Shown here piece after piece: positions 19,463 to 63,855 of a stretch of 64,000 bases of DNA. The DNA comes from a virus: IMG/VR virus record IMGVR_UViG_3300031703_000599, positions 34,609 through 98,608 of that record. One strand, 5' to 3'. The position numbers and the translations under genes are program-made. Numbering within the stretch: the first letter of the stretch is position 1; every line of letters begins with the position of its first letter. Under the pieces are notes generated by a model. That model worked only from the letters and a program-made list of their open reading frames with translations. It searched no databases and had not been told where the DNA came from.

Positions 19463-19491
19463 ATTATACTTTAAAACTTTGTGTTTGTCAA
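19463..19491 (-). promoter_or_regulatory. sigma70-type promoter for queE-MTase-metK
   Basis: TTGACA-N17-TATAAT. Confidence 0.7.
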
Positions 19492-20202: not shown

Positions 20203-20231
20203 ATTATAGTACATATACTGATAAATGTCAA
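20203..20231 (-). promoter_or_regulatory. sigma70-type promoter
   Basis: TTGACA-N17-TATAAT. Confidence 0.7.
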
Positions 20232-25160: not shown

Positions 25161-25189
25161 ATTATAGCAATAAATTGTGATGTTGTCAA
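25161..25189 (-). promoter_or_regulatory. sigma70-type promoter for the S8 protease
   Basis: TTGACA-N17-TATAAT, TG-extended. Confidence 0.7.
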
Positions 25190-33882: not shown

Positions 33883-33911
33883 ATTATATACTGGTATTTA
33901 GGTTTTGTCAA
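33883..33911 (-). promoter_or_regulatory. sigma70-type promoter for the clamp-dpdA operon
   Basis: TTGACA-N17-TATAAT. Confidence 0.7.
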
Positions 33912-41905: not shown

Positions 41906-41934
41906 ATTATACTACATGGTATGCGTAATGTCAA
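41906..41934 (-). promoter_or_regulatory. sigma70-type promoter
   Basis: TTGACA-N17-TATAAT. Confidence 0.7.
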
Positions 41935-48455: not shown

Positions 48456-48651
48456 CTTGTCCCCATGTGTTGAGATTCCATAATCTCTCATGGAAGTAGA
48501 ATATAATAGTATTAAATGTTAATTGAATAAATGCTATTGCACTACTTGTAGCAATGTCGCCAAGGATGGCCCAGCTGATTAAGAATGTACAGAGTGTTCC
48601 AGTAATTCTCCAACTAATAGTCTTTAGTATACTTCTAACTTTACTATCCAT
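48448..48651 (-). CDS. DUF2061-like small membrane protein
   Basis: RSILKTISWR...YFHERLW. Confidence 0.8.
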   Translation of the reverse strand: MDSKVRSILKTISWRITGTLCTFLISWAILGDIATSSAIAFIQLTFNTIIFYFHERLWNLNTWGQDE

Positions 48652-49168
48652 TCTTGCTCCACTCTGCGTATAGTCTGCCGTACTTGTCTTCGTCTATGAA
48701 GTCTACAGCGAATCCAAATTGTTCAGCAAATTTGTAATGCTCTTGTTCTGTCCACGGATAGTAAGGAATCATGTTTACCATTTCGTGCTGGTGATCTCTT
48801 ACGCCAGTATTAGTTCTCCAATATATCCTACATTGTGGTGTTAACAAACTTACTACTTTAGTAATTTGTCTTACCATATCTGCGTGGGTTCCGTATTGTA
48901 TACTACCCAAGCATAAAGACACATTGAACAACTCTAGAGGGTTATACGACTCTATGTCTGTTATAACGTCTGCGTTGTTGTTAATAATATCAATGCCAGT
49001 TAAGTTATTGATAATTGATTTAAATTCATTATTGCCGCATCCAACATCAATTACTCTTTCATGTGGAGTAATCTTATCAGCAATTGATTCATTTGAATAT
49101 CTATATTCGGACAGTCTACTTGTCCAATGTTTTCCAAAATATTCTTTGACTATTGCTTTAGTGTCCAT
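48644..49168 (-). CDS. class I SAM-dependent methyltransferase
   Basis: VIDVGCG, GID, CLGSI. Confidence 0.75.
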   Translation of the reverse strand: MDTKAIVKEYFGKHWTSRLSEYRYSNESIADKITPHERVIDVGCGNNEFKSIINNLTGIDIINNNADVITDIESYNPLELFNVSLCLGSIQYGTHADMVRQITKVVSLLTPQCRIYWRTNTGVRDHQHEMVNMIPYYPWTEQEHYKFAEQFGFAVDFIDEDKYGRLYAEWSKNG

Positions 49169-49226: not shown

Positions 49227-50276
49227 TTACTGTGCTACAATTTCTGGCTTGTATGCTGAATCATAACCTAGTGACTCATTTTGGAATTTCAACATAGTAC
49301 GTAATGCATTCTCTGTTGTGAATGACAAAATGTTGTCTCGGTTGTTATCGCCATCTGCGCCGATTGCCCATTCATAGTTGCCAACTTTCTTAGCAATTGC
49401 TGCAATGGAGTCTGGGTTTTGTGACATAGCTGTTAGTGCTGCTACTAGTTTTGCACGGTCCGGTGAACCCTTCTTAATCCAAAGTGCTTTCTGCATACCA
49501 TCACGGAATGACTTAGATAGCTTGTATCCATCATAGAAGTCTCCACTTGGTGCTACGCCCCACTTCTGTTCAAACAACATCTCAAACTGCAATCCAGGAT
49601 GATTTGGATCATCTGCGTGTGATCCATCTGCTGCTAATAGTCCGTGTGTAAACCATACTTCTGATGATTCATCTTTAGCTACGTGCTTCTTGTATGCTGC
49701 AGGGTTCTCACGTGTATGAGTAAGTTCATTACGTGTGTATGCTAGGCGCCCTGCGCCCTGTTGCATTCCCTTTACCCAAGTAACATTGTCTGAAAAACAA
49801 GATGCATAGTCGTCAGCGGCGCCATCTGGTCCACACACTAGCATCATTATTGCCATCATTTCTGGCAAACGAGCTGAGTCTGCTGCCATTCTAATGTTGT
49901 TGTCTGATGCACCAATCTTACGACCAGTTACAATAGTCAAATTCATCATGCCAATTGAATCATAATCACCGTATTTGTAATCGACTGCATCTAGTAAATA
50001 CTTTAGGGCGTTGCCGCCATTAGAAACCATTACAGTTTTTTCATTATCTTGTAGTCCATTATGGAACTTGTTAAAAGCCAACAAACTACGTCCACCTGGG
50101 ATGTGTTGAATTGTGATTTTCTCTCCATCTAAGAATTTCTCTAGTTCTGCAGCTACAATTGCTGTCCATACTGCTGTGCCGCCGCCTGGCTTCTGCGGTA
50201 CGATAAACGTATAATCCGCTACTGCTGTTGTTGCAAGCATCATGCTTGCGATAATACTAAGTAAAATCTTTTTCAT
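49227..50276 (-). CDS. tctC: tripartite tricarboxylate transporter substrate-binding protein (Bug/TctC-like)
   Basis: Signal peptide; FIVPQKPGGGT, HIPGG; adjacent to tctA. Confidence 0.75.
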   Translation of the reverse strand: MKKILLSIIASMMLATTAVADYTFIVPQKPGGGTAVWTAIVAAELEKFLDGEKITIQHIPGGRSLLAFNKFHNGLQDNEKTVMVSNGGNALKYLLDAVDYKYGDYDSIGMMNLTIVTGRKIGASDNNIRMAADSARLPEMMAIMMLVCGPDGAADDYASCFSDNVTWVKGMQQGAGRLAYTRNELTHTRENPAAYKKHVAKDESSEVWFTHGLLAADGSHADDPNHPGLQFEMLFEQKWGVAPSGDFYDGYKLSKSFRDGMQKALWIKKGSPDRAKLVAALTAMSQNPDSIAAIAKKVGNYEWAIGADGDNNRDNILSFTTENALRTMLKFQNESLGYDSAYKPEIVAQ

Positions 50277-50308: not shown

Positions 50309-51802
50309 TTACACAAAATCAATTCGTGCTTTGTTGTAAAATAGTCCCCATATCAGTGCTGCAATTGCTGCTACTGCAAAGAACAATGGTAGTGGATTGA
50401 ATACAATGTCCTGCCATCCATAACCGAATGTATTGAACTGTATCCAACTTGATTCTATTCTTGCACTAAGAATATAACCGATTAAGAAACTAACACGTGA
50501 AAACTTTAAGTATTTCATTGTTAGACCTACTAACATACATATACCCAATACAACATAGTCTTCAATGAAGCCTGTGTACTGTACTGATGCCCACACCAAT
50601 GACGCTAAGATAGGCCAGAAGTAATAAGCAAACGGTATATTAGTAATGTATACTGCATACCTGATGAATCCATAAGCAACTGGAAGAATGATTAACAAAC
50701 TCCACATATAACTGCTTAGTAATACATCAAAGAATCTTTCATCTTGCAGGACGTCCACTGTACCTAGCTCTAAGCCAACGTACATAAACAATCCCATAAT
50801 TATAACTTCAAACGATGCACCTGGAATACCAAACAAGATTGTTGGCACATAACTGGTTGCTTTCTGAGCATTATTTGCTCCTTCGCATCCAATTACACCT
50901 CGTACATTTCCTTGTCCTACAGTGTCGCCGTCCTTGCTAGCAGCTGCAACTGTTTGACTGTAAGCAAACCAGTCTGCAATTGCTCCGCCAATACCTGGGA
51001 TTAATCCAACAAACGCTCCAATAAAGCCTCCTCGTAATCCATCCCATCTGTATATCCAACTATCTTTTATACCCTGTATTAGCTGTTCTTTGATATTGTC
51101 TGCATCTAGTTTTACTGTTTCGTATCGTGTACGGAATGCACTTAGTAGTTCTGGAAACGCTAACAATCCTGCCATAACAGGAATCATTTGCACTCCATCT
51201 GCTAGATATATCCATGGTTCCCACATAAGTGATCCATCCACTATGCTAGGCATTATGGTTGTCCATCGCAGTGTTCCATCATCTGGATCTAATCCAATAT
51301 GACCCACACATACGCCTAATACTAGTGCAATTGCACCTCTAACAAAATACTTACTACTAATGAATACCACACAGGTCATTGCAAATATCAAGAAGGTAAA
51401 CATTTCTGCTGTGCCAAAGTATAATATGATTTTAGTATAGTATGGAAGAAAGAGGAACACCAGTAAGCCCCATATAACTCCATTGACCCAGCTGGTACTA
51501 ATTGCTGCACTTAATGCTCTTGGTGCTTCGCCTCGCCTGGTCATGGGAAATCCATCTACCATTGTGGCAGCGGCACTGCCTGCGCCTGGTATATTCATTA
51601 CAATAGCAGCAAAGCTGTCGCCGATGCTACTTGTAACTACAATTGCTGTTGTAAATACAACTAACATGTATGGATCTTCGAAATAACCAACAAACCCATA
51701 TATAGCAATTAGTCCTACTGTTGCGCCTGCTACTGGAACTAAGCCTATAAAGAATCCATAGACACATCCCATTAACAAAACAATAATATATGATTCAAAC
51801 AT
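50309..51802 (-). CDS. tctA: tripartite tricarboxylate transporter large permease
   Basis: NIPG...DGFPMTRRG, GLIPGIGG, EGANNA, LFGIPG. Confidence 0.9.
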   Translation of the reverse strand: MFESYIIVLLMGCVYGFFIGLVPVAGATVGLIAIYGFVGYFEDPYMLVVFTTAIVVTSSIGDSFAAIVMNIPGAGSAAATMVDGFPMTRRGEAPRALSAAISTSWVNGVIWGLLVFLFLPYYTKIILYFGTAEMFTFLIFAMTCVVFISSKYFVRGAIALVLGVCVGHIGLDPDDGTLRWTTIMPSIVDGSLMWEPWIYLADGVQMIPVMAGLLAFPELLSAFRTRYETVKLDADNIKEQLIQGIKDSWIYRWDGLRGGFIGAFVGLIPGIGGAIADWFAYSQTVAAASKDGDTVGQGNVRGVIGCEGANNAQKATSYVPTILFGIPGASFEVIIMGLFMYVGLELGTVDVLQDERFFDVLLSSYMWSLLIILPVAYGFIRYAVYITNIPFAYYFWPILASLVWASVQYTGFIEDYVVLGICMLVGLTMKYLKFSRVSFLIGYILSARIESSWIQFNTFGYGWQDIVFNPLPLFFAVAAIAALIWGLFYNKARIDFV

Positions 51803-51979: not shown

Positions 51980-52008
51980 ATTATACTATGCTATATGTGG
52001 GATGTCAA
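51980..52008 (-). promoter_or_regulatory. sigma70-type promoter for tctA-tctC with long structured leader
   Basis: TTGACA-N17-TATAAT; ATAAATA also at 51962-51968. Confidence 0.65.
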
Positions 52009-52028: not shown

Positions 52029-52907
52029 TCATTTATAGTCTCGCCATCTGTCATGCCGTTTATTATGTGCCTGTATTGTTCTATCTATTACAATTGCCAA
52101 GGCAACAATGGATAGTCCACTAATTACTCCAAGCCCAAGATATCCGTTGCCAATTGCGTTCATGACTTGCGAACCTAGTCCTCGCACTCCGATCATTGAT
52201 GCAATAACAACCATTGCTAATGCCATCATGACTGTTTGATTTATTCCACCGAGTATAACATTACGTGCAAGTGGTAATTCTATCAGTGCTAAAATATGCA
52301 TAGGTTTTAATCCCAATGCATGACCTGTTTCAACTAAGTCTTGATTAATTTCTCTAATGCCCAGGTTTGTAAATCTAATCACTGGTGGAATAGCAAATAT
52401 ACATATAGCAATTAAGCCAGGTACTTTGCCTAATCCAAATAACATTATTACTGGAATTAGATATACAAAACTAGGAATGGTTTGCATTAAATCTAGTATA
52501 GGTAGGATTATTCGTTGTGCTATTTTCTTCTTTGCCATTAGTATGCCAGTTGGTATACCAATAACTATACAAACAAATGTACTCACAACAACAATGGCAA
52601 GGGTACGCATAGTATCGTCCCACATGCCAACTAATCCAATCAATATGAAACTAGATATAAATCCTACAATCAGTTTCCAACTTCTCGCTACTTGCCAAAG
52701 CAATACACTTGATAGTATTAAAAATACATACCAAGGTGTAATAAGCAATAAGTTTTCAAACTGTATTAGTATCCATTGAAGTGGGGAGAGAAGTTCTGTT
52801 AACGACTCTCCCCAATTACTAGCAAACTCTCTAAATGTCGCATCGATTGACTTTTTTAAACTAGTTATAGTTTCCCTACCTAACGACGGAAAGTTTGCTT
52901 GTTTCAT
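52029..52907 (-). CDS. proW: glycine betaine/proline-type ABC permease
   Basis: LDLMQTIPSFVYLIP, IELPLA...GINQTVMMALAMVVIASMIG. Confidence 0.92.
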   Translation of the reverse strand: MKQANFPSLGRETITSLKKSIDATFREFASNWGESLTELLSPLQWILIQFENLLLITPWYVFLILSSVLLWQVARSWKLIVGFISSFILIGLVGMWDDTMRTLAIVVVSTFVCIVIGIPTGILMAKKKIAQRIILPILDLMQTIPSFVYLIPVIMLFGLGKVPGLIAICIFAIPPVIRFTNLGIREINQDLVETGHALGLKPMHILALIELPLARNVILGGINQTVMMALAMVVIASMIGVRGLGSQVMNAIGNGYLGLGVISGLSIVALAIVIDRTIQAHNKRHDRWRDYK

Positions 52908-52908
52908 T

Positions 52909-53913
52909 CTAGTTCAACGTTGCTTTAATTTTAGTAGCAATATGGTCTGGGACCCATGTTGTCCAAAGTTCTGGATGTAGCGTTAAGAACTCAACTGCGG
53001 CATCTTCTGCTGTTGCTTGATTATCATCTGACCAAACTAACATTTCTGTTACTACACTGCCATCCAATGACCGTGCTGTTAGATAACTAATTACATCAGC
53101 ATCAAGTCCAGGTGTAACAATAGTTCCTGTTTCTGCTAATGGAAAACTTGAGGGCTGCGGATTGGCGCATTCTTCTGGTGCAACTGAGATACAATCAACC
53201 CAATTACTATCACCTGCGTATCCGATTTCAGAAACAATTGACTTTAGTCCTAAACGACCTACTAATACAGTTGGTGTCCAGTAATAACCAAATGCTGGTT
53301 GTCCTTTGACTACGGCGCCTTCCCAGTATGCATTAAGTCCTGCACCTGAACCTGGGTCTAATAACTTCCAGCCCTTTGCTTCCATGTCGAATGCTACAAA
53401 CAAATTGTCATTGTGCTTTTTACATGACCATCCTTCTGGACAAACTACAATTCCACCTTTAGAAGAATCTTCTGGGTGTGGAAATAAATCTGGTCGTGCT
53501 AATACATCTTCAACTGTATTAAGTCCGAATTCAGTCGAAACATAATTTGGAATATACCATCCTTCTCCTGCACCAACTACTACTTCATCCCTTACTTGAA
53601 TAAGCGTTCCGTTTGCGATGTATTCTTGTGCTGAATCACCAAGTAATGATGTCCATGCTTCGCCAAATATGTTAGGTGAACCAGTTGCCATCATTGATTG
53701 AATTGTTGCGTCAATTCCACCTGGGATTAACTCTACATCATGTCCATATCCATTGGTTAAGATATACGCATCGATGTTCGCAATCATTGACCCTGATTGC
53801 CAATTTAATTCAGCAATTTTAATTTCATCAGCATGTGCAGCGTTGCCAGTTAATGCAAGCATGATTGCTGTCGTGCTCAAGAAACGTGTTATGTGTTTAC
53901 TAGTCATTTTCAT
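52909..53913 (-). CDS. proX: glycine betaine/proline-type ABC substrate-binding protein
   Basis: Signal peptide; NWQS, EGWYIP, CPEGWSC, GYYWTP, WTTWVP. Confidence 0.85.
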   Translation of the reverse strand: MKMTSKHITRFLSTTAIMLALTGNAAHADEIKIAELNWQSGSMIANIDAYILTNGYGHDVELIPGGIDATIQSMMATGSPNIFGEAWTSLLGDSAQEYIANGTLIQVRDEVVVGAGEGWYIPNYVSTEFGLNTVEDVLARPDLFPHPEDSSKGGIVVCPEGWSCKKHNDNLFVAFDMEAKGWKLLDPGSGAGLNAYWEGAVVKGQPAFGYYWTPTVLVGRLGLKSIVSEIGYAGDSNWVDCISVAPEECANPQPSSFPLAETGTIVTPGLDADVISYLTARSLDGSVVTEMLVWSDDNQATAEDAAVEFLTLHPELWTTWVPDHIATKIKATLN

Positions 53914-53972
53914 TATATCTCCATTGATATTGATATTATAGTTTATTTTACTTATATAATATAAGTGTATTC

Positions 53973-54001
53973 ATTGTAACATATATAACATATGTTGTCA
54001 A
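53973..54001 (-). promoter_or_regulatory. sigma70-type promoter for proX-proW
   Basis: TTGACA-N17-TACAAT, TG-extended. Confidence 0.6.
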
Positions 54002-54013
54002 TTCAAAATTAAG

Positions 54014-54595
54014 TTATTTCTTCTTAAATATAGTCATAACATGATATTTTTGGCCCTCATCTATTGTGACTAACGATTTAATAATTTCTTCAGAAACTAT
54101 TTCTAGATAGGTCTGATCTCTCCAGCCCATTAACTGTAACGGGTCTTCTTTGTCAACAATTGATACTGAGGCAATCAGTAGTCCATCATCCTCTAATGAT
54201 TCTGCAAACATCTTAGCACTACTTGAATGTATATGAGATTTATTAAAAGCACCTATGACTGTTATGCATCTGTACTTTTTGGGTAACGGATTATTGTTCA
54301 TATCATGTAATGTCGTAGAACGGTAATTGACAGATTCAAATGTGTTTAACATCTTAGGATTAATATCATATCCATCAATTACATAATCTTTGTTGTTAAA
54401 TCCTATTCCAATTTGTCCGTTGCCACACGCAACATCTGCCATTTCGGTTCCATGTTCAAAATTATCTCTTACCCAGTTGTTCGCATAAGCAATAGGACCG
54501 TCCATCCAACCTGCTTCAATACACCATTTATTATAATCCCAATCTTTATATAATTCGTCCACACTTATATCTAATACATTTTTAAGCCAACTCAT
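54014..54595 (-). CDS. class I SAM-dependent methyltransferase
   Basis: ADVACGNG, DGYDINPKML. Confidence 0.8.
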   Translation of the reverse strand: MSWLKNVLDISVDELYKDWDYNKWCIEAGWMDGPIAYANNWVRDNFEHGTEMADVACGNGQIGIGFNNKDYVIDGYDINPKMLNTFESVNYRSTTLHDMNNNPLPKKYRCITVIGAFNKSHIHSSSAKMFAESLEDDGLLIASVSIVDKEDPLQLMGWRDQTYLEIVSEEIIKSLVTIDEGQKYHVMTIFKKK

Positions 54596-55281
54596 TTGTA
54601 ATACTCCACCTTTTCATTTATATTCTGTCTTTCTGTTCTATACTGATTAATACTACTAGTAGTATCTTCATATCCCATGCTCATGCCACAAAGGACTATC
54701 TTGTCTTTATATTCTGGAAATTCTTCTCTTACAATATCAGCATACTCTCCAAGTGAACCCTGCGAACAGGTTGCAAGTCCATTTTCAACTGCTAACAACA
54801 TAATAGATTGTAGGAACATCCCATAGTCTAAATACGAACCTTTGCCCAGTTCTTTGTCAATGAAGAATAATAACATTACGGGCGCATCAAACCCTCTGTA
54901 ATTTTTAGCATATAGTTCGTCTTTACGCTCTATCATTTCTCTAGTAATGCCTAGTTGTGAATATAATGCTAATCCACATGCTTTTCTATTTTCTTTATAC
55001 TTACCAAACCATTTAGTATCCTTTTCAGACTTTTTATCCTGTGGATAATATTCATAATCCATTACAGGTTGCTTACCTGAAATAAATGCATTTTCTAATT
55101 TAGCACATAAATTATTTTTCGCACCACCAGTCAACACTGCTACTTGCCAAGGCTGATGATTATCTCCACTAGGAGATAACATTGATTGTTCTAATATGTG
55201 TTTGACAATAGATATGTCTACTTCCTTATCCAAGTACGCACGTATTGATTTACGTTTTTCTACTGCGTCGCTAACAATCAT
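54592..55281 (-). CDS. nitroreductase family flavoprotein
   Basis: RKSIRAY, SPSGDNHQPW, DYGMFLQSIMLLA, GMSMGY. Confidence 0.92.
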   Translation of the reverse strand: MIVSDAVEKRKSIRAYLDKEVDISIVKHILEQSMLSPSGDNHQPWQVAVLTGGAKNNLCAKLENAFISGKQPVMDYEYYPQDKKSEKDTKWFGKYKENRKACGLALYSQLGITREMIERKDELYAKNYRGFDAPVMLLFFIDKELGKGSYLDYGMFLQSIMLLAVENGLATCSQGSLGEYADIVREEFPEYKDKIVLCGMSMGYEDTTSSINQYRTERQNINEKVEYYK

Positions 55282-56711
55282 ACCTCAGAGTGAGATTTAA
55301 CGCTAACATGTTCTATGATGTGTTTTTTGTCACCATTTAACACAATATCTGCTAGCTGTCTTTTTTGTAATTTTTGTGGGGTCCTAGTGGCATCAGTTTG
55401 TCCGAAAAATAGTTTATCAGTAACATGATATATATCATGTGGTCTCTTTGATTGCTGTGCATTTTTATAGTTCTTGGCAACATCTGATGCAAGCGCGTTG
55501 CCCGTGTACATTACGTAATGTATTTCATCTTTAGAACAACTAGCAACATTTTCTACTCCTGGAACTTCTAATGCTAATGCTTCTACTAATCCTGTGTAAA
55601 CCTTAACACCACCTTTCATAAAGATAACATCATCAAATGCTCTGCCTTTGTAAAACCAAGCACCATTTTTGTTCTCAAACCTATCGCCGTCTGTTTGCCA
55701 GTCACGTGTGCCATACTTGTACCAAAGTACACCATTTTCATCATATTTAAGTTCACCATTATAAAACGCTGGATCGTATACAAACCCATAAAAGTTTTCT
55801 ATTGGATCACCGGGTCTATATTCTGCACGACTATGACAGTCTGCTTCTGTACTTGCCATCATATTGAACATACATACGAAGTTAAATTTCTTCTCAATAC
55901 TTCTAACAACTGATTCTGGAGTATGTCCACCTGAACATTCCCAATACTTGATACCGCTCCAATTAAAATCATCTGGGCATGCATCTACAATATTCTTAAT
56001 TGCAATAGGATATGAGATACAGCAATTAGGATTTGCTTTTTGTATCTGCTCTGGAATATCATCGCCATAATTTAAGAAGTGCAATCCACCGCCAACGTAA
56101 TACATTCGTAGTAAGTTGTAAGGATTGTATGTTGCTGTAAATCCATGCGTACATAGTATGTAAGGTCTTTCATCGTCTTCAAACTCGGGTGCTACTGCAA
56201 ATAAATGTTGAGTTGATGCGTGTGCTGTGCAACCTAATAATGTTTCTCCATTCACAATTGCGTTTTCGTGATCTTCATAATCCCAGAAGAAAGGATACAT
56301 TTCAAAGAACTCTTTAACTGTAGTTCCACTTGTCATTCCTCTGTATATCTCCAATGGATGCAAGATCGACGGACTTAGATCGTCAGTTAACATTGTTATT
56401 TCGTTGCTACGAATAGTACATATTGCGTTAGAGCCTGCAATTAATCCATTTAATTCCATCTTAGATTGTCTAGCATCTGCTTGTGTTGCTGATCCGCCGT
56501 TCTTAACACTAGCAAGAATCCATAAGTAATCATCTATTGTAACTTGATCTTCTGCTACTACGAAAACAACATGCGGACCGATTCCATGTTCTTTTAATCT
56601 TTCTATTTTAGCATCAAGGTTAGCATGTAACTCACCCCATGTAATTTGTTCTGTTGATGAACTTAGAAATATTTGATCATTACTAAGTTGTTTTTGTTTT
56701 TGTTTTAACAT
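55278..56711 (-). CDS. adenylate-forming (ANL/AMP-binding) enzyme
   Basis: TSGTT, ASTE, TDGD, GRAFDDVI...G.KV, KLQKR core motifs. Confidence 0.75.
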   Translation of the reverse strand: MLKQKQKQLSNDQIFLSSSTEQITWGELHANLDAKIERLKEHGIGPHVVFVVAEDQVTIDDYLWILASVKNGGSATQADARQSKMELNGLIAGSNAICTIRSNEITMLTDDLSPSILHPLEIYRGMTSGTTVKEFFEMYPFFWDYEDHENAIVNGETLLGCTAHASTQHLFAVAPEFEDDERPYILCTHGFTATYNPYNLLRMYYVGGGLHFLNYGDDIPEQIQKANPNCCISYPIAIKNIVDACPDDFNWSGIKYWECSGGHTPESVVRSIEKKFNFVCMFNMMASTEADCHSRAEYRPGDPIENFYGFVYDPAFYNGELKYDENGVLWYKYGTRDWQTDGDRFENKNGAWFYKGRAFDDVIFMKGGVKVYTGLVEALALEVPGVENVASCSKDEIHYVMYTGNALASDVAKNYKNAQQSKRPHDIYHVTDKLFFGQTDATRTPQKLQKRQLADIVLNGDKKHIIEHVSVKSHSEV

Positions 56712-57583
56712 TATCTTACTACCTTTAGTTTTTCTATACTTTCATTATAAAATTTATTAGGCCCTAGTATATTAGTATAATCGAACGCTGTTCGCCAAAT
56801 CATTCTATCAACACTTTTAACCCAAGAACGTCTATGTAACGTGAGCAATTGGTCACATATTAAAAAGTCGCCTTCTCTGAGAACAAAATCAGTTATGTTT
56901 CTTCCTTTATACAAGTCTTTCCAAAACTTATCTTTTAGTTCTTCTATATCAATTGGTTCGTTTTTATACCATGCTTTGTCAAGGAATGCAGGTTGCCATA
57001 GCATAATTTCTTTATCAGTGTATGGATGTATATTAATTACATTTTGTCTTTCGTCAACGTGTTTAAAAACTTTATAATTGTTTAAACTAGGATCTCTAGC
57101 ATGTTCTTCAGGTGTTCCATATATTCCATGTGAACCTTGATTGAGTTGTGTTTTAACATTGCGCCACCATTCTTTTTCTTCTTCTGATAGATAATTAAAT
57201 GCAACTTGCGTGTTCATTAAACTTAATACAGTATCAGGACACGAACCCACACAATATAATCCTGTTAACAATTCTTTAAATTCACCAAAATGACATACTC
57301 CAAAGTCATGGTGGTATAATAAATCTGATGGACCAAACATTCCATGTGGGTCAGTACCAGTGGGCTGTGATGTAATTAGAGAAAGATCCGGGGTGTCTTC
57401 TGGATTAAACTGCATGTGTCCCATTGATGGATTTGAATCATTTGTATCGCCAATACGCTGACTGATATCAACTAACTCTTGTCTAGTAAATTCTTGGTCA
57501 TGCAACAATATATATCCATTAATTGCTAATTGATACATTGCGTCTTTTAATTCTATGTCGGTGTAGTCTGTTAAATTTTTCAT
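56711..57583 (-). CDS. TauD/TfdA-family Fe(II)/2OG dioxygenase
   Basis: YHHD, GLYC, HPYT, GDFLICDQ..TLHRR...R.IWR. Confidence 0.85.
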   Translation of the reverse strand: MKNLTDYTDIELKDAMYQLAINGYILLHDQEFTRQELVDISQRIGDTNDSNPSMGHMQFNPEDTPDLSLITSQPTGTDPHGMFGPSDLLYHHDFGVCHFGEFKELLTGLYCVGSCPDTVLSLMNTQVAFNYLSEEEKEWWRNVKTQLNQGSHGIYGTPEEHARDPSLNNYKVFKHVDERQNVINIHPYTDKEIMLWQPAFLDKAWYKNEPIDIEELKDKFWKDLYKGRNITDFVLREGDFLICDQLLTLHRRSWVKSVDRMIWRTAFDYTNILGPNKFYNESIEKLKVVR

Positions 57584-57584
57584 T

Positions 57585-58436
57585 TCAATTTTTTCTATCT
57601 ATGGAATGTGTATAGTCTATTGCTACTCTCCATAGTTCTCTGTTTTTATCTAATATTGGCGAACGGCGGTGTAGAGTATAAAACTGGTCCATAATTAATA
57701 TGTCTCCTGGTCTAAAAACAATGTCTTTGATATATTTTGTTCTATTGATAACAGAATCAAACTTTTCTTGTAATGGTTCTATTTCTATCTGTTTGCCGTT
57801 GTGCCACGCTTTGCTTATTAATGGTGGTTGCCAATATAAGAATTCTTCGCCGCCAACTGGATGTTTGTTTACAACTGGCATTCTTTCATCGCCCGAATGC
57901 GGAGGTGCTTGTATATATTCGCCCATTCGTGCAGTTTCGGCAACCTTTCCACTATTTTTAGGTGGGTTCCAATATTTGCCCATTATACTTCCACCTTGAT
58001 TGTTTAGTTGCACTTCGACTCCACGCCACCATTCTTTTTCTTCTTCCGGCAAGTCTAAAAATGCATCACGATTATTACTCACTGATAAAACAGTATCAGG
58101 ACAATATTCCACACAATACAAACAAATTAACCATTCTTTGTGTTCCCACACATTGTCAACAACATGGTGTACTGTTCCATTTGAATGCCAATGTAAATCG
58201 CAATGTCCAAGTAACATATCCGGTTTAGGAGATACGATTGATATATCTGGATTATCACTAGGATTGAATTTCATGTACCCTAGCATATCATCGTCAGTGC
58301 TTCCTATTCGTCTGCAATAGTCAACTAATTCTTTTTGAGTGAACTGTTGGTCATAATGTAAAGTAAAGCCATCGGTTAGTATACGTTGCGCCTCATCCAA
58401 CATCTCACATTCAGTAAAGTCTTTTATCTGGTTCAT
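57585..58436 (-). CDS. TauD/TfdA-family dioxygenase (HxN variant)
   Basis: WHSNG, CLYC, HPVG, GDILIMDQ..TLHRR...RELWR. Confidence 0.8.
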   Translation of the reverse strand: MNQIKDFTECEMLDEAQRILTDGFTLHYDQQFTQKELVDYCRRIGSTDDDMLGYMKFNPSDNPDISIVSPKPDMLLGHCDLHWHSNGTVHHVVDNVWEHKEWLICLYCVEYCPDTVLSVSNNRDAFLDLPEEEKEWWRGVEVQLNNQGGSIMGKYWNPPKNSGKVAETARMGEYIQAPPHSGDERMPVVNKHPVGGEEFLYWQPPLISKAWHNGKQIEIEPLQEKFDSVINRTKYIKDIVFRPGDILIMDQFYTLHRRSPILDKNRELWRVAIDYTHSIDRKN

Positions 58437-58999
58437 TCGTTATCCGCCATGTATTGTCTATAATTTTGAAGTGCTTGTTTATATGATATATCTAATATCT
58501 TAAACTTTACAAACTTTCTCTCTGTAGGGAATGCCGGAACACTATGTTCTTTCATGATATTTAGCAAAGCACATTTGTAAGTGATAAGCCCATACGTTGG
58601 GAAATTTATAGGACCAGTGGGAGAAACTAATTGTATATTTACTGCACATTTAATAGGCTTTACTTTAGTAGTTGACCCAATATTTAATATATCACTGGGT
58701 AATTTATCTGAATGTACTGGAACTGATGTATTTGCTTCTTGAGTAAACGTCAATACTTCTATCTCGTTTGTTCCTAGTAATTCTCGTAATTGTTCGCATA
58801 TATTGTTTACTTCTGAATCAGGTTGAAGTGGGACACTTGCAATTAACCATGTCTCTGGGCCAGCGAACCAACTGTCAGTTTCAGTCTCTTTAAGTTCTTT
58901 AAAGTACGGCTCTAACTCTAACACATCTACTTCTTGTTGAAGTTTTTTGATGTCGTACTGTAGCGTTAGCTCTTGTACGTAATCTGATTCAAGTTGCAT
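58433..58999 (-). CDS. putative 2OG-Fe(II) oxygenase-like (double-stranded beta-helix) protein
   Basis: PVHSD...CAVNI...LLNIMKEHSV...R. Confidence 0.55.
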   Translation of the reverse strand: MQLESDYVQELTLQYDIKKLQQEVDVLELEPYFKELKETETDSWFAGPETWLIASVPLQPDSEVNNICEQLRELLGTNEIEVLTFTQEANTSVPVHSDKLPSDILNIGSTTKVKPIKCAVNIQLVSPTGPINFPTYGLITYKCALLNIMKEHSVPAFPTERKFVKFKILDISYKQALQNYRQYMADNE

Positions 59000-59002
59000 T
59001 AA

Positions 59003-59680
59003 CTATCGTTTCTTTAATACAAAGAATATACGTCCGTTGTCTTGACGTATAGTAACGACCATACAACCAAATGCATTGGCTGCATTAATAATAAACTCTG
59101 GTGTCCATTCAAAGAAGTCAATCCATTCAGCTTCTGGTGCAGTGTGCATCTTGCCTGGGTTAACACGAAAGAATAGTAATCCTTTGTCTGATGTAAGTTC
59201 AATTGCATGTGACAGTTCCATTAAGATCTTATCACTGCTTCCAAAGTTAATACTGCCTAAGCTGATAACAACATCATATTCTTTGTCTTTATCTACAACA
59301 TAATCCATTATTGTGCTGTTAACATCAGCTCGTGTGTTGTATGGATCAATTCCTATTAGATTATTAATCTTGCCTTTGAACTCATTGTATCCGCAGCCTA
59401 AGTCTAGTACGTTAGCGGGCTCAAGTGAATTAATTTCATCAATTATACTTAACCCGCTGTACTTGTATTTCTTTGTCTGTGGCTGCCAAACTTTACTAAA
59501 GTATTGCTCTAGTACAAGGGTGTCTATTGTATTAGTTAACTCAACTATACTGTTTGCTTTTGCGTCTACTGTTACGTCAAATGTAGCTGAAATTGCTACC
59601 TTTAAGCTCTGTGGATTCATCAACAGTGCAGGTGACGCTTTAAGCATCTCTTGTAAACGATTAAATATTTTAATATTCAT
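59003..59680 (-). CDS. class I SAM-dependent methyltransferase (paralog of 48644..49168)
   Basis: VLDLGCGYNEFK, GIDP, SLGSINFG. Confidence 0.8.
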   Translation of the reverse strand: MNIKIFNRLQEMLKASPALLMNPQSLKVAISATFDVTVDAKANSIVELTNTIDTLVLEQYFSKVWQPQTKKYKYSGLSIIDEINSLEPANVLDLGCGYNEFKGKINNLIGIDPYNTRADVNSTIMDYVVDKDKEYDVVISLGSINFGSSDKILMELSHAIELTSDKGLLFFRVNPGKMHTAPEAEWIDFFEWTPEFIINAANAFGCMVVTIRQDNGRIFFVLKKR

Positions 59681-59711: not shown

Positions 59712-59740
59712 ATTATACATGATCAATCATGCATTGTCAA
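59712..59740 (-). promoter_or_regulatory. sigma70-type promoter
   Basis: TTGACA-N17-TATAAT. Confidence 0.7.
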
Positions 59741-59743: not shown

Positions 59744-59857
59744 TTAGTCGTATATAAAAGGATCTTTCTTTGCCATTTCTTCTAGCTTTTTCTTTAATTC
59801 TTTTCTATATTTGCGTTCTTCGATTATATCTTTAATCCATTTAACTGGGTTCCACAT
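59744..59857 (-). CDS. small basic protein
   Basis: Manual ORF MWNPVKWIKD...KKDPFIYD with AGGAG RBS. Confidence 0.55.
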   Translation of the reverse strand: MWNPVKWIKDIIEERKYRKELKKKLEEMAKKDPFIYD

Positions 59858-60587
59858 TGTAGTTTCTCCTATTCCATGCGTCAAGTACGTGTTCGCCTAG
59901 CAGGCGTTGGCCTGCTTTAGTAAAGTGGCCTTGGTCACCTTTGTTGTTTAGTATATTTACTAATTCTTTATGTTTGCCAACAGCGTCAAACAATGCTGAC
60001 ATGTTTAAATATTGTGCGTGTGTATGTTGGTATTTATAGTCAACATGACTGTGTGTTTTTATTACCCATGTTGGAATGTTGTTACGTTGTAGTATATTAT
60101 TAATATGACTGCATGCAGCTTTAACAAGACTTGGTAACATATCAGTGGCCGCTAGCTTGTGTAAGTAATCAACTGCATTGTCAGTTAAGTCTAAATTCCA
60201 ATTGCTATGTAATTGCTGTTGTAATGCAGGTCTATGCTGTAGTCCTCTGCTTAGTATTACACTGTCTTCTGTTAATTCATGTGTAACTATATTACCTAGC
60301 GTAGTACGAGCCCATAATGAATCTTGTGTTAATAAAAACTTAGGCTCTATGCTTTCTTGTATGATGCATGCATCGTATGTATCTAGCTCAGTACTTAACG
60401 GTCCATCTTCAATTGCTTGTAGCCAATTTAAATACCCTACTCCGTAGCCTGTGTAATGTGTAATTGTAGTTGCATCATTTTGTAATGCATCAATCCAACT
60501 ATGAGTACTAGTTAATTCCTCTTCGTCATTATTGTTAAAGCCATAGCTTCCTCTGCTGTAACTGCATCCTAGTACAAGGAGTTTCAC
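59841..60587 (-). CDS. SGNH-like hydrolase/acyltransferase
   Basis: VLGCSYS, DQGHF. Confidence 0.6.
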   Translation of the reverse strand: MKLLVLGCSYSRGSYGFNNNDEEELTSTHSWIDALQNDATTITHYTGYGVGYLNWLQAIEDGPLSTELDTYDACIIQESIEPKFLLTQDSLWARTTLGNIVTHELTEDSVILSRGLQHRPALQQQLHSNWNLDLTDNAVDYLHKLAATDMLPSLVKAACSHINNILQRNNIPTWVIKTHSHVDYKYQHTHAQYLNMSALFDAVGKHKELVNILNNKGDQGHFTKAGQRLLGEHVLDAWNRRNYNVEPS

Positions 60588-62086
60588 TTATCATCCGTTG
60601 TAACAACTGTTACGTTATACTGTTCTGTCCAGCGTTTTGCATCCAATTCATTGTCTACCATTGGCTCACCTTTTATGTTTAGGCTAGTGTTAAGTAACAT
60701 TGGTCCATTACCTTCTGCTTGCCACTTGTCTAACAAGTTGTACAGTCCTGGATTTTGAATCTTATTAACAGTTTGTACTCTGCTTGTTCCATCTATATGT
60801 GTAATTGCAGGGTATAAGTCAGGACGTTTTGTACGACCCACAAACTGCATAAACGGACTACTGTGTACACCCTGTGGCATGTCAAAGTATTCGTGTAAGT
60901 ATTCTTCTTTAATGACTGGAGCAAATGGTCTAAACGCTTGTCGTTGCTTAACTGTATTAACTAAATCTTGCATTGATTTGCCGCGTGGGTCAGCTAACAA
61001 ACTTCTGTTACCTAATGCACGTGGACCAAACTCGGCACGTCCACTTGCTACTCCTACCATGCCTGTGTTCTGTAATTCTTTTAATGCAGCATTAACTGGG
61101 TAGCTGCCTGGGATGTTGTAACCTAGATATGGATTATTAAACTCTACAAACTCACGTGTGTGATCTAATACACACCCAATGCTGCTGCCTGCGTCGCCTG
61201 GGTTAGGCATAATCCATACACCTTTAAAGAACTTATGTGCAATGCTATTAGCAACACAATTTAATGCACAACCGCCCATTAGTACAATGTTCTTTGAGTT
61301 AACTAACAACGATGCCTCAACACATAAATGTGTAAATATCTCTTCGTACACTGCTTGAACGCCTGCTGCAATGTCTGCGTAGTCTTGTACACTGTTTAAC
61401 TCGGGTGCCCAGTCGCGGCATCCTCTGTGTAAGTTACGTTTAAATTTAACACTCATCTCGCCTCGTTTCATGGGCACAATGAAATCATTGTATATCTTAT
61501 CTTTATATTTGTTAGGATCGCCTACTGCTGCCCATCCCATTAATATATATTCATCTTCGTTTGGCTTTAATCCAATGCGCTGTGTCATTGCACTGTACCA
61601 CAGTCCTAGACTGTTTGGGTAGCTTTGACTAAATCGTTTCTTTAATGTACGGTCTCGTCCTTCCCACAGTGTAAGTGTTTCAAACTCACCTATGCTGTCT
61701 ATTACTAGTACTGCGGCATCTCTATACGGACTTGTGTAATAGCCTGCAGCGGCATGACTAGCATGATGCCTATGATTAATTACATGATTGTCTATTCCAA
61801 GGGCTGACAGTGTCTTACTTGGGCTAGGTTTATTAAATGCTGTGCTGTATTGGCCTGCACGTAGCTGACGCATCTTCTTTAACCACGGAGTCTCGTACCA
61901 GTGTACCTCTGTTGGTTCACCAAACTCTAATGCTTGTGCAATTAAAGATTCATTTAAATAAGCATCATTCTTTTTACCACTGCTTCGTTCTGCGTGTGCA
62001 GCGAATGCAATGTCGTTACCTTTAAATACTGCAAGGGCTGCATCGTGTGCGTCTGCTGTAATTCCCCATCTAATATGATTATTCAT
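60584..62086 (-). CDS. carbamoyltransferase (NodU/CmcH/TobZ family)
   Basis: HDAA, HHASHAA, GGCALNCVAN, EFGPRALGNRS, FRPFAP, LNTSLN. Confidence 0.95.
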   Translation of the reverse strand: MNNHIRWGITADAHDAALAVFKGNDIAFAAHAERSSGKKNDAYLNESLIAQALEFGEPTEVHWYETPWLKKMRQLRAGQYSTAFNKPSPSKTLSALGIDNHVINHRHHASHAAAGYYTSPYRDAAVLVIDSIGEFETLTLWEGRDRTLKKRFSQSYPNSLGLWYSAMTQRIGLKPNEDEYILMGWAAVGDPNKYKDKIYNDFIVPMKRGEMSVKFKRNLHRGCRDWAPELNSVQDYADIAAGVQAVYEEIFTHLCVEASLLVNSKNIVLMGGCALNCVANSIAHKFFKGVWIMPNPGDAGSSIGCVLDHTREFVEFNNPYLGYNIPGSYPVNAALKELQNTGMVGVASGRAEFGPRALGNRSLLADPRGKSMQDLVNTVKQRQAFRPFAPVIKEEYLHEYFDMPQGVHSSPFMQFVGRTKRPDLYPAITHIDGTSRVQTVNKIQNPGLYNLLDKWQAEGNGPMLLNTSLNIKGEPMVDNELDAKRWTEQYNVTVVTTDDK

Positions 62087-62531
62087 TTATATTAACTCTA
62101 TTCATTATTGCGGCATCATCGCCGCATATCGCTCTAATAGCAGGTATGTTGTCTGGTAATGGTTTGTTGTGTAAATCTAACCATACACCTTTACTGCACT
62201 GTACGTGCTTACCTGGGTAACACCATACCCATCCATTACTTGTTAGTGTGCAATCATCTTGGTCATGAAAGAAGAAGTGTGCATCAATGTGCATCAATGG
62301 TGGAATACATTCAATTGTTTTAGCGTGTACAATTACCTCACGCTTGGCTAGAAACTTCTCATCTGCCCATGCCTGTGGATTATCGTGTCCATACCACAGC
62401 ACTCCATTTAACAGTTGTACGTCTACTTCTACATGATGTCCAGCTTCAATTGCCTCATTCATATATTCCTGTGTGTTCTCACGTGTACTATCACGTCCTT
62501 GGTAATTGCCTCTGTGTGCAATAAAATCCAT
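62079..62531 (-). CDS. PLC-like/glycerophosphodiester phosphodiesterase domain protein
   Basis: IAHRGN, EN, EVDV, GHD, HAK. Confidence 0.75.
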   Translation of the reverse strand: MDFIAHRGNYQGRDSTRENTQEYMNEAIEAGHHVEVDVQLLNGVLWYGHDNPQAWADEKFLAKREVIVHAKTIECIPPLMHIDAHFFFHDQDDCTLTSNGWVWCYPGKHVQCSKGVWLDLHNKPLPDNIPAIRAICGDDAAIMNRVNINE

Positions 62532-62543
62532 ACACCCTGTCCT

Positions 62544-63257
62544 TTATTTGTTTAAGAAATTTTCTAAGTCTTCTGGAGTGCCTATGCCTATCATTGATGT
62601 AACAGGAATAGCAGCAATATACGTATCATGTAACAGTGCTATTGTGTAATTAAACACAGGGCATGTATAAAACTCTCCATTTACTCTGTCGTTCATATCA
62701 ATCATTCGTTCAACGCTTTCAATAAACTGCTGACTATTTTTCCAATAGTACCAGCCTGTAGTAGCCCACTCACTTATAGCAATCTTTTCTGCTACAGCTA
62801 ATACTCCATTTTCTTCATTTATAGCTGCATAACTCCATTTAGAATCCTTCTCAGGGCAATGAAATACACTAATTGCGCCAACTATCTTATCATCGTTTAT
62901 CACACTATGCATTGAGCGCAAATTCCATTCAGTGTGTTGATCACAATTACTAATGAATATACTGCATCCTTCTTCTTCGAAATGTTCCCTTGCTAACATT
63001 ATAGTACATGCTGTGCCATCTGTCAAGTCATTAATTTCAACTACTGTAGCGTCTGGATACCATTCTAATATGTCTTCTCGTAAGTTATGTGCTTTTTGCA
63101 CAATAAAGATACGTTCATCAAATTCAAGTCCAATGCATCGCTCGCTGTGAACAAACATCGGAACTCCATTAACTGGTATCATGGGCTTAGGAACAGTATA
63201 GCCAAGTTCATCGAATCTACTGCCGTTGCCTGCCATAGGCATTATTAATTTTAACAT
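62544..63257 (-). CDS. sugar nucleotidyltransferase-like protein
   Basis: PMAGNGSRF...PKPMI, NCD, VAEK, GTPEDL. Confidence 0.85.
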   Translation of the reverse strand: MLKLIMPMAGNGSRFDELGYTVPKPMIPVNGVPMFVHSERCIGLEFDERIFIVQKAHNLREDILEWYPDATVVEINDLTDGTACTIMLAREHFEEEGCSIFISNCDQHTEWNLRSMHSVINDDKIVGAISVFHCPEKDSKWSYAAINEENGVLAVAEKIAISEWATTGWYYWKNSQQFIESVERMIDMNDRVNGEFYTCPVFNYTIALLHDTYIAAIPVTSMIGIGTPEDLENFLNK

Positions 63258-63258
63258 T

Positions 63259-63855
63259 TTATTTCCTTATGTGTTGTAGTTTGGACAGCGTGTCTGCGCT
63301 GTTTATTACACTGATCACAACACAACCACTCGCGATTGCGCATTGTATTCCAACTGGACTGTCTTCAAATATCAGTGTAGTTTCTGGTGTGCTGTTAGTA
63401 TATTCAACTATGTCTAAGAACGTAGTTGTGTCTGGCTTTGCTGGAAAGTCTGTTGCTGTGTTAATCTTAACAAATAGATCTTTAATTTGCAACAAGTCTA
63501 AGCTAGCGTGTACAAACAATTCAGTTGCATTACTTGCAACGGCTAATTGATAGCCTGCATCTTCAAGTCTATGCATCTCTGCACATAACTCCACGTTGTA
63601 TATTATGTATTCATGTAAATGTGCTTGCGTATGTGATTGCTTAATTTGATTTAACTTATCTCCGTTAAACTCATATCCTTTGGCATGTAATATACGTATC
63701 TTTTCACGTGTTGGACGACCTTCTACTTCCTCATCTGTAAACACTGCAAGTGGGCAAACTACTGCAATTGCAGCACGAAACCCATCTTGATGTAGTTCTT
63801 TACAGTCTGCTAATGTACCATCAAAGTCAAATATTATTGTTTTTATGTTTTCCAT
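63259..63855 (-). CDS. HAD-family phosphatase
   Basis: FDFDGTL, ASN, KP, FEDSPVG. Confidence 0.9.
   Translation of the reverse strand: MENIKTIIFDFDGTLADCKELHQDGFRAAIAVVCPLAVFTDEEVEGRPTREKIRILHAKGYEFNGDKLNQIKQSHTQAHLHEYIIYNVELCAEMHRLEDAGYQLAVASNATELFVHASLDLLQIKDLFVKINTATDFPAKPDTTTFLDIVEYTNSTPETTLIFEDSPVGIQCAIASGCVVISVINSADTLSKLQHIRK

Follow-up and report, generated by a model that had tools for sequence, protein, structure and literature searches.

A conserved phage gene island that may join uptake of an onium zwitterion to its enzymatic conversion

The locus and its viral setting

IMGVR_UViG_3300031703_000599 is a linear IMG/VR virus record of 98.6 kb, of which we analysed a stretch of 64,000 nucleotides (nt), referred to below as the window. 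Our subject is a block on the minus strand of the window, at 52029-59680, in which seven abutting or overlapping enzyme genes are followed by a gene for a periplasmic binding protein and then by one for an ATP-binding cassette (ABC) permease (Table 1). A sequence-only reading had described this block as a recently acquired, AT-rich pathway by which a phage makes or remodels a small molecule from an imported substrate, and each of the genes that it named is indeed an open reading frame (ORF) on the minus strand at the place given. The tight coupling that it described is equally evident, the junctions from 59003 down to 54014 being +3, -4, +1, -1, -4 and -4 nt. Its count of six enzyme genes has to be raised to seven, since the methyltransferase gene MT225, separated by 3 nt from the gene that follows and closely preceded by a perfect promoter, belongs to the same unit. 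Gaps of 100 nt, 1 nt and 226 nt precede the binding-protein gene, the permease gene and the TctA gene beyond it, respectively.

Table 1. Genes and promoter sites of the block and its surroundings, with features of related loci. Positions are those of the window unless a locus is named; aa, amino acids; SAM, S-adenosylmethionine; 2OG, 2-oxoglutarate; FMN, flavin mononucleotide; ANL, acyl-CoA synthetase/NRPS adenylation domain/luciferase
Feature	Position	Strand	Assignment and remarks
MT225	59003-59680	-	predicted class I SAM-dependent methyltransferase with N-terminal helical extension; Methyltransf_23 21 bits, below cut-off
u188	58433-58999	-	188 aa; probable cupin-type Fe(II)/2OG oxygenase (H-x-D ... 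H), lead only
TauD1	57585-58436	-	Pfam TauD 50.2 bits (cut-off 27)
TauD2	56711-57583	-	Pfam TauD 48.9 bits (cut-off 27)
Ligase	55278-56711	-	predicted stand-alone ANL-superfamily adenylating enzyme; Pfam AMP-binding 29.0 bits (cut-off 29.9)
Reductase	54592-55281	-	predicted NfnB-type FMN nitroreductase-fold oxidoreductase; Pfam Nitroreductase 70.2 bits (cut-off 23.5)
MT193	54014-54595	-	small probable SAM methyltransferase; weak Methyltransf_23/25 matches
Binding protein	52909-53913	-	putative DmpX-like branch of OpuAC family; Pfam OpuAC (PF04069) 127.6 bits
Permease	52029-52907	-	ProW/ChoW/DmpW-type ABC permease; BPD_transp_1; NCBIfam ChoW 252.8 bits, ProW 247.7 bits
TctA	50309-51802	-	large membrane subunit of tripartite tricarboxylate-type transporter (TTT); Pfam TctA 280.3 bits
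u349	49227-50276	-	probable TctC-like periplasmic binding protein; no Pfam match; lead only
u174	48644-49168	-	second MT225-family methyltransferase copy; 34% identity to MT225, E 2e-28
Promoter of enzyme unit	59712-59740	-	perfect sigma-70 site, TTGACA-17-TATAAT; in gap just upstream of MT225 start at 59680
Promoter-like site	53973-54001	-	TTGACA-17-TACAAT with extended TG, 11/12 matches; in 100-nt gap before binding-protein gene
Promoter of TctA	51980-52008	-	perfect sigma-70 site, TTGACA-17-TATAAT; before TctA gene
Perfect sigma-70 site	10532-10560	-	TTGACA-17-TATAAT
Perfect sigma-70 site	19463-19491	-	TTGACA-17-TATAAT
Perfect sigma-70 site	20203-20231	-	TTGACA-17-TATAAT
Perfect sigma-70 site	25161-25189	-	TTGACA-17-TATAAT
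Perfect sigma-70 site	33883-33911	-	TTGACA-17-TATAAT
Perfect sigma-70 site	41906-41934	-	TTGACA-17-TATAAT
Perfect sigma-70 site	62998-63026	-	TTGACA-17-TATAAT
SufC homologue	L026:1450-2184	+	L025 and L026 are the records of loci L023 and L016
Distant ligase homologue, locus L130			metagenome contig Ga0070749_10011398
Distant ligase homologue, locus L131			metagenome contig Ga0070750_10001240

Nine perfect TTGACA-17-TATAAT sites occur in the window, against 0.05 expected, and all of them are on the minus (coding) strand; they give the impression of a strict set of early promoters that serves the entire window. (One, the site at 62998-63026, falls within a nucleotidyltransferase gene at 62544-63257.) The perfect site upstream of MT225 is likely to be the start of the seven-gene enzyme unit, and, with the near-perfect site before the binding-protein gene and the perfect one before TctA, the region reads as three early-type units: one for the seven enzymes, one for half of an ABC importer and one for half of a TTT importer. 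There is no enrichment of the T4 late-promoter motif TATAAATA in the window (5 occurrences versus 8.3 expected), and none lies upstream of the genes of the module formed by the enzymes and the ABC importer half.

That the module is phage-borne is supported both by the record itself and by related records. CheckV puts the completeness of the 98.6-kb contig at 28%, from which a genome of roughly 350 kb follows, and no capsid gene was found on the contig. Two module-bearing related records, G002 and G004, encode gp23, the major capsid protein of T4 type (E 2e-98 and 1e-140), together with a large terminase (Terminase_6N), and the capsid protein of one relative is 71-74% identical to those of the jumbo phages Phosso (469 kb), Vibrio 2.275.O (349 kb) and PA5oct (287 kb). 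A Sec signal peptide on the binding protein would direct it to a periplasm, which implies a Gram-negative host. No match to the block was found by blastn among GenBank phages, and neither the ligase nor the binding protein is present in 50,697 GenBank phage records.

The AT-richness of the block noted in the sequence-only reading is real but modest, with a GC content of 0.354 (54014-59680) against 0.3865 for the 98.6-kb contig. This ranks fourth lowest among 465 segments of equal length (lowest 1%), and the difference holds gene by gene: 0.352 for the block versus 0.390 for the other 93 ORFs (Mann-Whitney p 1e-5), with GC at third codon positions (GC3) of 0.27 versus 0.33 (p about 6e-4). In a comparison of eight related loci, a higher AT content of the module relative to its flanks was not a consistent finding, so the dip reflects the background of this phage and does not mark the module.

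The importer half and the enzymes

The binding protein begins with a typical Sec signal peptide, as read from its translation, and its best match in the PDB is 7YLE (E 1.1e-40, 143 bits), other matches being to TmoX (4xz6; E 2.8e-5, 26.7 bits) and E. coli ProX (E 2e-3). The structure 7YLE is that of RnDmpX, a binding protein from Roseovarius nubinhibens that is specific for dimethylsulfoniopropionate (DMSP) (Li et al., ISME J 2023, PMC10030565). Its pocket is lined by W35, T64, W84, E113, W152, A153, Y200 and W202: the sulfonium sits in a cage of the four Trp residues, Y200 forms a hydrogen bond with the sulfur, both Y200A and Y200F abolish binding, and the carboxylate of DMSP is held by T64 and A153 (PMC10030565). 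When 38 proteins are aligned, the corresponding columns of the window protein read W, I, W, E, W, S, Y and W. Six of the eight pocket residues are thus identical to RnDmpX, Y200 among them, while A153, which makes a backbone contact, is replaced by Ser and T64 by Ile.

For comparison with cellular proteins, we distinguished three groups of binding proteins (a, b and c) from genomes of Rhodobacteraceae and others. Group c is the true roseobacter DmpX, scoring 400 bits to 7YLE and 30-35% identical to the phage protein; group b scores 239 bits, and group a, which is 42-46% identical to the phage protein, scores 188 bits. In the resulting tree the phage binding proteins form a single clade (support 100) whose stem measures 1.17 changes per site. 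Group a is the first to join it (98), followed by b and c, and the TmoX-like proteins fall outside. The phage protein thus has the OpuAC fold and a DmpX-like placement, though its clade stands next to group a and not to the validated group c. Pocket and placement together suggest a divergent DmpX-like member in which the head-group site appears intact and the tail site altered, and a zwitterion with a sulfonium or quaternary-ammonium group is the most likely ligand.

With the permeases encoded after the nearest cellular binding proteins the phage permease shares 51-56% identity, compared with 37-45% for the binding protein itself, and the better conservation of the permease would be compatible with docking to an ATPase of the host. 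In five of the six cellular loci read, binding protein and permease are followed by a gene of 346-372 aa taken to be the ATPase; among 80 cellular loci around the nearest binding-protein genes no cassette enzymes were found, the permease being the one gene shared with the phage block. On the phage side, no ABC ATPase (PF00005) was found in the 28%-complete contig, and five related records (about 550 kb, records 23-51% complete) hold no transport ABC ATPase, only SufC. The ABC ATPase of two of the related records, tried as a candidate transport subunit, proved to be this SufC homologue (E 1e-87 to E. coli SufC), which probably serves the many iron-sulfur enzymes of these phages.

The importer half can be set against two known systems. 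With DmpXWV of Roseobacter and SAR11 it shares the OpuAC fold, the four-Trp cage, Glu113 and Tyr200, as well as a binding-protein gene directly followed by a ProW-type permease gene, as in cellular XWV operons; it differs in having no gene for the ATPase (V), in the change of Thr64 to Ile, in its 30-35% identity to roseobacter DmpX, in being embedded in an island and in that its binding protein is nearest to an uncharacterised sister group. The other system is PstS of marine cyanophages and pelagiphages, a phage periplasmic phosphate-binding protein thought to use transporter parts of the host and thereby to raise uptake. A periplasmic binding protein supplied by the phage is common to both, whereas here a permease is supplied too, the ligand would belong to the organic onium zwitterions and a conversion cassette is attached. 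Phage-encoded binding proteins as such are therefore already known; what is new in the importer half is that it is a phage-borne, ATPase-less variant of the DmpXWV/ProU kind. A literature search found no phage-encoded DMSP genes.

Turning to the enzymes, the ligase belongs to a very small family: its profile recovers 37 proteins among 1.84 billion representatives, about ten of them full length, with giant non-ribosomal peptide synthetases (NRPSs) next, and the members all come from metagenomes or viral contigs. A broader profile matches 152 ANL chains in the PDB, the best being linear gramicidin synthase (an NRPS adenylation domain, E 2.9e-23), followed by FadD10, CfaL, DhbE, DltA (7vhv, aligned over 15-450) and benzoate-CoA ligase, and the intermediate sequences P0046, P0049 and P0044 pass the cut-off of Pfam AMP-binding (PF00501). 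Invariant among close relatives are the P-loop-like TSGTT-K, N-ASTE, D343 as the ribose-binding Asp, G356-R357 at the hinge and K447 as the C-terminal catalytic Lys. On the strength of the PDB profile search, we assign the ligase to the ANL superfamily, with both subdomains and the adenylation motifs recognisable in its sequence, and it appears to be a carrier-less offshoot of NRPS adenylation domains confined to viruses and metagenomes. It has in common with DltA, CfaL and NRPS adenylation domains both ANL subdomains, the ATP motif, the hinge Arg and the catalytic Lys, and is set apart from them by the missing carrier partner, by the tiny size of its family and in that the single sequence falls below the Pfam cut-off. 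The earlier remark that no carrier protein is visible is confirmed, as small ORFs (45-140 aa) containing G-x-D-S are missing from the surroundings of the module, both in the window and in nine related loci, and PP-binding Pfam has no match among the proteins of the cluster. With no carrier protein, the second half-reaction is likely to be direct formation of a coenzyme A (CoA) ester or an amide. An AlphaFold model of the ligase, made from an alignment of 11 sequences, was too poor for use (predicted local distance difference test, pLDDT, 49.8). A 73%-identical ligase, P0017 (NCBI MBR20476.1), is on a 120-kb contig of a metagenome-assembled genome (MAG) named 'Euryarchaeota archaeon'; the likeliest explanation is that a phage contig was binned with an archaeon, though an archaeal host is also conceivable, and a genome scan with P0017 returned no cellular ligase locus.

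The two TauD-family proteins are paralogues with 40% identity that differ at the iron site. TauD2 has the canonical H-x-D (H-H-D) ... H ... R motif, whereas the motif of TauD1 is W-H84-S-N86, aligned with WHSD in 5vn6 and WHTD in 6d3h, with Asn in place of the carboxylate. Every TauD1 orthologue has H-x-N, as do the single TauDs of loci L014, L016 and L017 and the third TauD of L012; Asp is retained in TauD2, its orthologues and the single TauD of L020. The distal His256 and Arg266/Arg270 are invariant in all TauDs aligned; in E. coli TauD, Arg266 and Arg270 serve to bind 2OG and the anionic substrate. Against the PDB, the family profile finds taurine dioxygenase (5vn6, E 3.7e-6) as its best match and a ScoE-type structure (9p9p) at E 2.7e-5. 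The parallel with ScoE and isonitrile pathways drawn in the sequence-only reading is not supported: the ScoE-type match is no better than that to taurine dioxygenase, and there is no carrier protein. Like TauD, TfdA, AtsK, BBOX/TMLH and ScoE, the phage proteins have a full-length TauD domain (PF02668), the distal His and the Arg pair, and in TauD2 the full triad; they differ in that their PDB matches are very distant and that TauD1 has H-x-N, neither a carboxylate nor Ala/Gly. Halogenases have Ala or Gly at the carboxylate position of the facial triad, and we know of no characterised H-x-N enzyme. In a literature search the H-x-N facial triad was not described, and nothing relevant was found on dioxygenases in pelagimyophages. 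AspH is reported to work with two His only (PMC10915816).

The H-x-N form is also present in a cultured phage. The TauD of Pelagibacter phage Mosig EXVC030M (MT647606.1) is 32.5% identical to TauD1 and has the same WHSNG motif; it lies (locus L132, MT647606.1 48496-65266) among genes for a nitroreductase, Asp_Arg_Hydrox, a desaturase, an FMN reductase, a peroxiredoxin, a methylase and an acetyltransferase. The hypervariable island of Mosig (PMC7892664) resembles the block in having a WHSNG TauD followed by a methylase, with a nitroreductase, Asp_Arg_Hydrox and a fatty-acid desaturase nearby, and differs from it in having neither ligase nor importer and in its place next to the tail fibres, TauD alone being similar to genes of the window. 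In L012 (13923-16766, minus strand) an H-x-N TauD gene is followed by a u188-like gene and preceded by a 245-aa gene without known function and a fatty-acid desaturase gene, the product of which is 33% identical to the Mosig desaturase. As for u188 itself, its earlier reading as an oxygenase stands as a fair lead and no more, for it has no Pfam or NCBIfam match. Its nearest named Atlas clusters are 2OG-FeII_Oxy_3 and viral Asp_Arg_Hydrox, its H-x-D and distal His are kept in three homologues, and its motifs line up with those of two Mosig Asp_Arg_Hydrox proteins.

The remaining enzymes are of familiar types. By its PDB matches - 3gr3 (E 3e-41, residues 6-228), 7dp0 (E 9e-36) and NfnB 2wzv (E 1e-23) - the reductase is predicted to be an ordinary NfnB-type FMN enzyme (PF00881). 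The AlphaFold model of MT225 (pLDDT 85.3) has the SAM methyltransferase 3h2b as its best Foldseek hit (probability 1.0, template modelling (TM) score 0.60) and the protein has an invariant D-x-G-C-G motif; as modelled, it would be a class I SAM methyltransferase nearest to small-molecule methyltransferases, although the fold search returned generic small-molecule methyltransferases only, with no clue to the substrate. MT193 has weak NCBIfam matches to CpaM, TehB, BchM and UbiE.

Beyond the permease gene lies what may be a second incomplete importer. The N-terminus of u349 is a signal peptide followed by IVPQKPGGGT, a TctC-like start, and the protein scores 0.96 in the Atlas to a bacterial cluster in which 17% of the members carry TctC. 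In relatives it always adjoins TctA, the pair being present in the L003, L004, L012 and L018-L024 groups. No ORF of at least 60 aa that could be TctB lies between 51803 and 52028; in L020 a 144-aa gene before TctA is a TctB candidate, with no Pfam match. TctA and a TctC-like protein with no recognisable TctB thus make a set as incomplete as the ABC pair. The methyltransferase genes on the two sides, MT225 and u174, are paralogous, as the sequence-only reading had it. Upstream of the block, at 59841-63855, are genes for a HAD phosphatase, a nucleotidyltransferase, a 150-aa protein without known function, a carbamoyltransferase of NodU/CmcH type (170 + 128 bits) and a 248-aa protein without known function, which we read as a nucleotide-sugar style set; L003 also has a carbamoyltransferase gene near the module.

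Recurrence of the module among phages

A search of IMG/VR brought up 22 relatives of the ligase (57-87% identical), onto whose loci we mapped all proteins of the window. About ten phage lineages carry the module, in at least three gene orders. Its core, present nearly throughout, consists of TauD (in one or two copies), the ligase and MT193, with MT193 placed after the ligase cassette in every relative whose locus reaches past the cassette; the reductase joins this core in lineages with 73-87% ligase identity. Over the 22 loci the set is conserved and co-oriented, and the gene co-occurrence on which the sequence-only reading depended is thereby established. The binding-protein and permease genes abut the enzyme genes in about eight of eleven lineages, either upstream of TauD1 (groups L003, L004, L010, L012 and L016), downstream of MT193 (the window and L008/L009) or directly before the ligase (L017), and TctA, u349 and an MT225-family gene are often close to the core. 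In L003 one perfect promoter stands just before the binding-protein gene and the next only after MT193, and importer and enzymes there look like a single transcription unit.

This distribution does not agree with a recent acquisition, as had been proposed for the block. The spread over about ten lineages, the three or more gene orders and the 57-87% ligase identity all speak against it, as do the single clade of phage binding proteins on its long stem and the inconsistency of the GC dip in relatives. Two of the loci have additional genes: in L004 (5867-6874, plus strand) a radical SAM/SPASM gene is inserted between ligase and reductase, and in L017 (5353-6573, plus strand) a creatinase/M24-type gene (Creatinase_N + Peptidase_M24) lies between ligase and TauD. 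The Creatinase_N/M24 fold also covers the DMSP lyase DddP, ectoine hydrolase and creatinase.

A more distant relative extends this pattern. P0044, a ligase homologue of 26% identity, is found in a phage-like contig with a PstS-like protein and DUF932. The gene order at this locus is a truncated AMP-binding gene of 224 aa, the ligase homologue, two genes without known function, an MT225-family methyltransferase and a sodium:solute symporter. In L131 the methyltransferase beside P0044 is 37% identical to MT225 and 38% to u174; the two genes after the ligase homologue were considered as possible TauD counterparts and are not TauD-like by profile comparison. Ligase, MT225 family and an importer, in this case of a different class, thus recur together across a deep divergence, and no other single observation argues as strongly for a link between uptake and enzymes. 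Scans of viral contigs with P0039, P0044 and P0203 gave no matches.

Possible roles of the island

What can be said of the function of this set? The proposal in the sequence-only reading of an import-linked small-molecule pathway holds up in outline, in that a conserved set joins an onium-type binding protein and permease with oxygenases, an adenylating enzyme, a flavoenzyme and methyltransferases. Our best reading, which we hold tentatively and at a little under even confidence, is that of an early-expressed auxiliary island for the uptake and conversion of a DMSP- or betaine-like zwitterion in a marine jumbo phage with a T4-type capsid. Under this reading, host RNA polymerase would transcribe the three units from their near-perfect sigma-70 promoters, and phage binding proteins and channels would be inserted into the envelope of the Gram-negative host. 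As none was found among the genes of the phage, a DmpV/ProV-type ABC ATPase would have to be borrowed from the host. Uptake would be raised for a sulfonium or quaternary-ammonium zwitterion, possibly DMSP or a close analogue with an altered tail, given the change of Thr64 to Ile. In the cytoplasm, the TauD pair and the small cupin oxygenase could then oxidise the imported compound, the carrier-less ANL enzyme adenylate its carboxylate on the way to a CoA thioester or amide, the NfnB-like flavoenzyme reduce an intermediate and the SAM methyltransferases methylate the product. In one chemical version, the molecule would be hydroxylated beside the onium centre and thereby cleaved, much as taurine is by TauD, after which the resulting aldehyde would be reduced and the acid activated. 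What the phage could plausibly gain is carbon or energy, or else reduced sulfur for making methionine and SAM: the contig has a SAM synthetase gene (16213-17301) and more than ten radical SAM genes, which suggests a need for methionine and SAM that sulfur from DMSP might serve.

A more specific form of this proposal has the TauD enzymes attack imported DMSP, dimethylsulfoxonium propionate (DMSOP) or another sulfonium analogue in a reaction dependent on O2 and 2OG, with ligase and flavoenzyme passing the carbon on as a CoA ester. The attack could be a hydroxylation by the sulfonium, giving dimethyl sulfide (DMS) and malonate semialdehyde, or an oxidative S-demethylation. We consider this form unlikely; were it true, it would constitute a virus-encoded organosulfur route outside the known Dmd and Ddd pathways, with Asn in an iron site.

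Several observations weigh against the uptake-and-conversion reading or parts of it. DMSP itself is a possible ligand, but the ligand may differ because Thr64, which contacts the carboxylate, is Ile: at this place Ile with Asp after it stands in six of the seven phage copies, L016 alone retaining Thr, while Thr64 is kept in all cellular DmpX-like proteins of the alignment. The closest cellular kin of the binding protein (group a, 44% identical, 188 bits to 7YLE) has an uncharacterised ligand. TauD1, with its H-x-N, may not bind iron at all, and the Mosig TauD of the same form sits beside tail-fibre genes with no importer. No enzyme of the block has a significant match to a known DMSP or betaine enzyme (DmdA-D, the Ddd lyases, BBOX); the one hit of this kind is to TMLD, at E 0.0094. 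Most importantly, the two halves can be separated. Among the 25 viral loci that a scan with the binding protein yielded, L145 and L150 have the importer pair between PRPP (phosphoribosyl pyrophosphate) synthetase/primase and a DnaB-type helicase, with neither cassette nor ATPase, and L155 and L156 have a 39%-identical binding-protein/permease pair beside an aldo/keto reductase, again with no cassette. (In the latter two the aldo/keto reductase gene, with 209 bits, stands where an ATPase would be expected: L155, 11842-12795, and L156, 11885-12874, both on the plus strand.) Conversely, L014/L015 and L018-L024 have the cassette with no binding protein or permease within 10 kb, and in the window the importer has its own promoter, separate from that of the enzymes. 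This makes the importer half an independent module, whose adjacency to the enzymes could reflect a shared hyperplastic island. It is because of this separability that we do not rate the coupled reading, import followed by conversion, above one half.

This separability would be expected if the block consisted of two unrelated morons, with the binding protein and permease, and likewise TctA and its TctC-like partner, as stand-alone boosters of osmolyte or nutrient uptake, and the seven enzymes as part of a large tailoring repertoire of the phage. The cassette would then act on a compound formed within the cell, be it a modified DNA base, a glycan or nucleotide-sugar, or a component of virion or envelope tied to host recognition. 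Such an arrangement would match the hypervariable islands of pelagimyophages and cyanomyophages, and much in the surroundings is in keeping with it: a 26-kb radical SAM block and a 7-deazaguanine set with glycosyltransferase and epimerase elsewhere on the contig, the carbamoyltransferase, nucleotidyltransferase and HAD genes directly upstream, the tailoring-type genes and tail fibres around the H-x-N TauD of Mosig, and the radical SAM/SPASM insertion between ligase and reductase in L004. It is less easily reconciled with an importer that abuts the enzymes in most lineages in spite of three gene orders and apparently shares one promoter with them in L003, or with the distant ligase homologue that is again near an importer. 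The arginine pair of the TauDs and the small-molecule-type methyltransferase fold would in addition fit a small anionic substrate, and the enzyme unit has an early-type promoter, with no T4 late motif before its genes. We regard two separate morons as a real possibility, if on balance a rather doubtful one.

A distinctly improbable alternative is a natural-product cluster that makes a secreted specialised metabolite, for example of isonitrile or amide type, from an imported precursor. The ligase is nearest to NRPS adenylation domains, the amide-forming CfaL and DltA, oxygenase, flavoenzyme and methyltransferase are typical tailoring enzymes, and ScoE-type structures do occur among the matches of the TauD profile. 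These matches are, however, weaker than that to plain taurine dioxygenase; carrier protein, condensation domain and thioesterase are all missing, as is an exporter, both transport sets being importers with periplasmic binding proteins. No cellular cluster with the ligase was found, and an infection cycle would seem too short for a secreted metabolite to pay off. There is also the case that the sequence-only reading itself had named as fatal, a chimera with host DNA or a cellular island miscalled as viral. That the transporter and reductase genes look cellular and that the block has a modest GC dip could be cited for it, although nothing else in the contig could, and one ligase homologue is filed under the name of a Euryarchaeota MAG. 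Yet more than 20 independent IMG/VR contigs from many samples hold the module with phage flanks, and in G002 and G004 the capsid and terminase genes are on the module's own contig; identical perfect promoters run along one strand through the whole window, block included; the closest cellular binding protein is just 44-46% identical; and the scan of genomes with P0017 found the ligase in no cellular genome. We deem such an origin extremely improbable and, for practical purposes, excluded.

Whichever reading prevails, the island has three oddities: an importer half that would borrow the ATPase of its host, an H-x-N lineage of TauD proteins that includes one from a cultured SAR11 phage, and a family of carrier-less ligases; a literature search found no description of any of the three. 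DMSP and other onium osmolytes are major carbon and sulfur currencies of the surface ocean, and their breakdown gives rise to climate-active DMS. If the uptake-and-conversion reading is correct, phage infection would alter the fate of onium compounds, besides killing the organisms that consume them.

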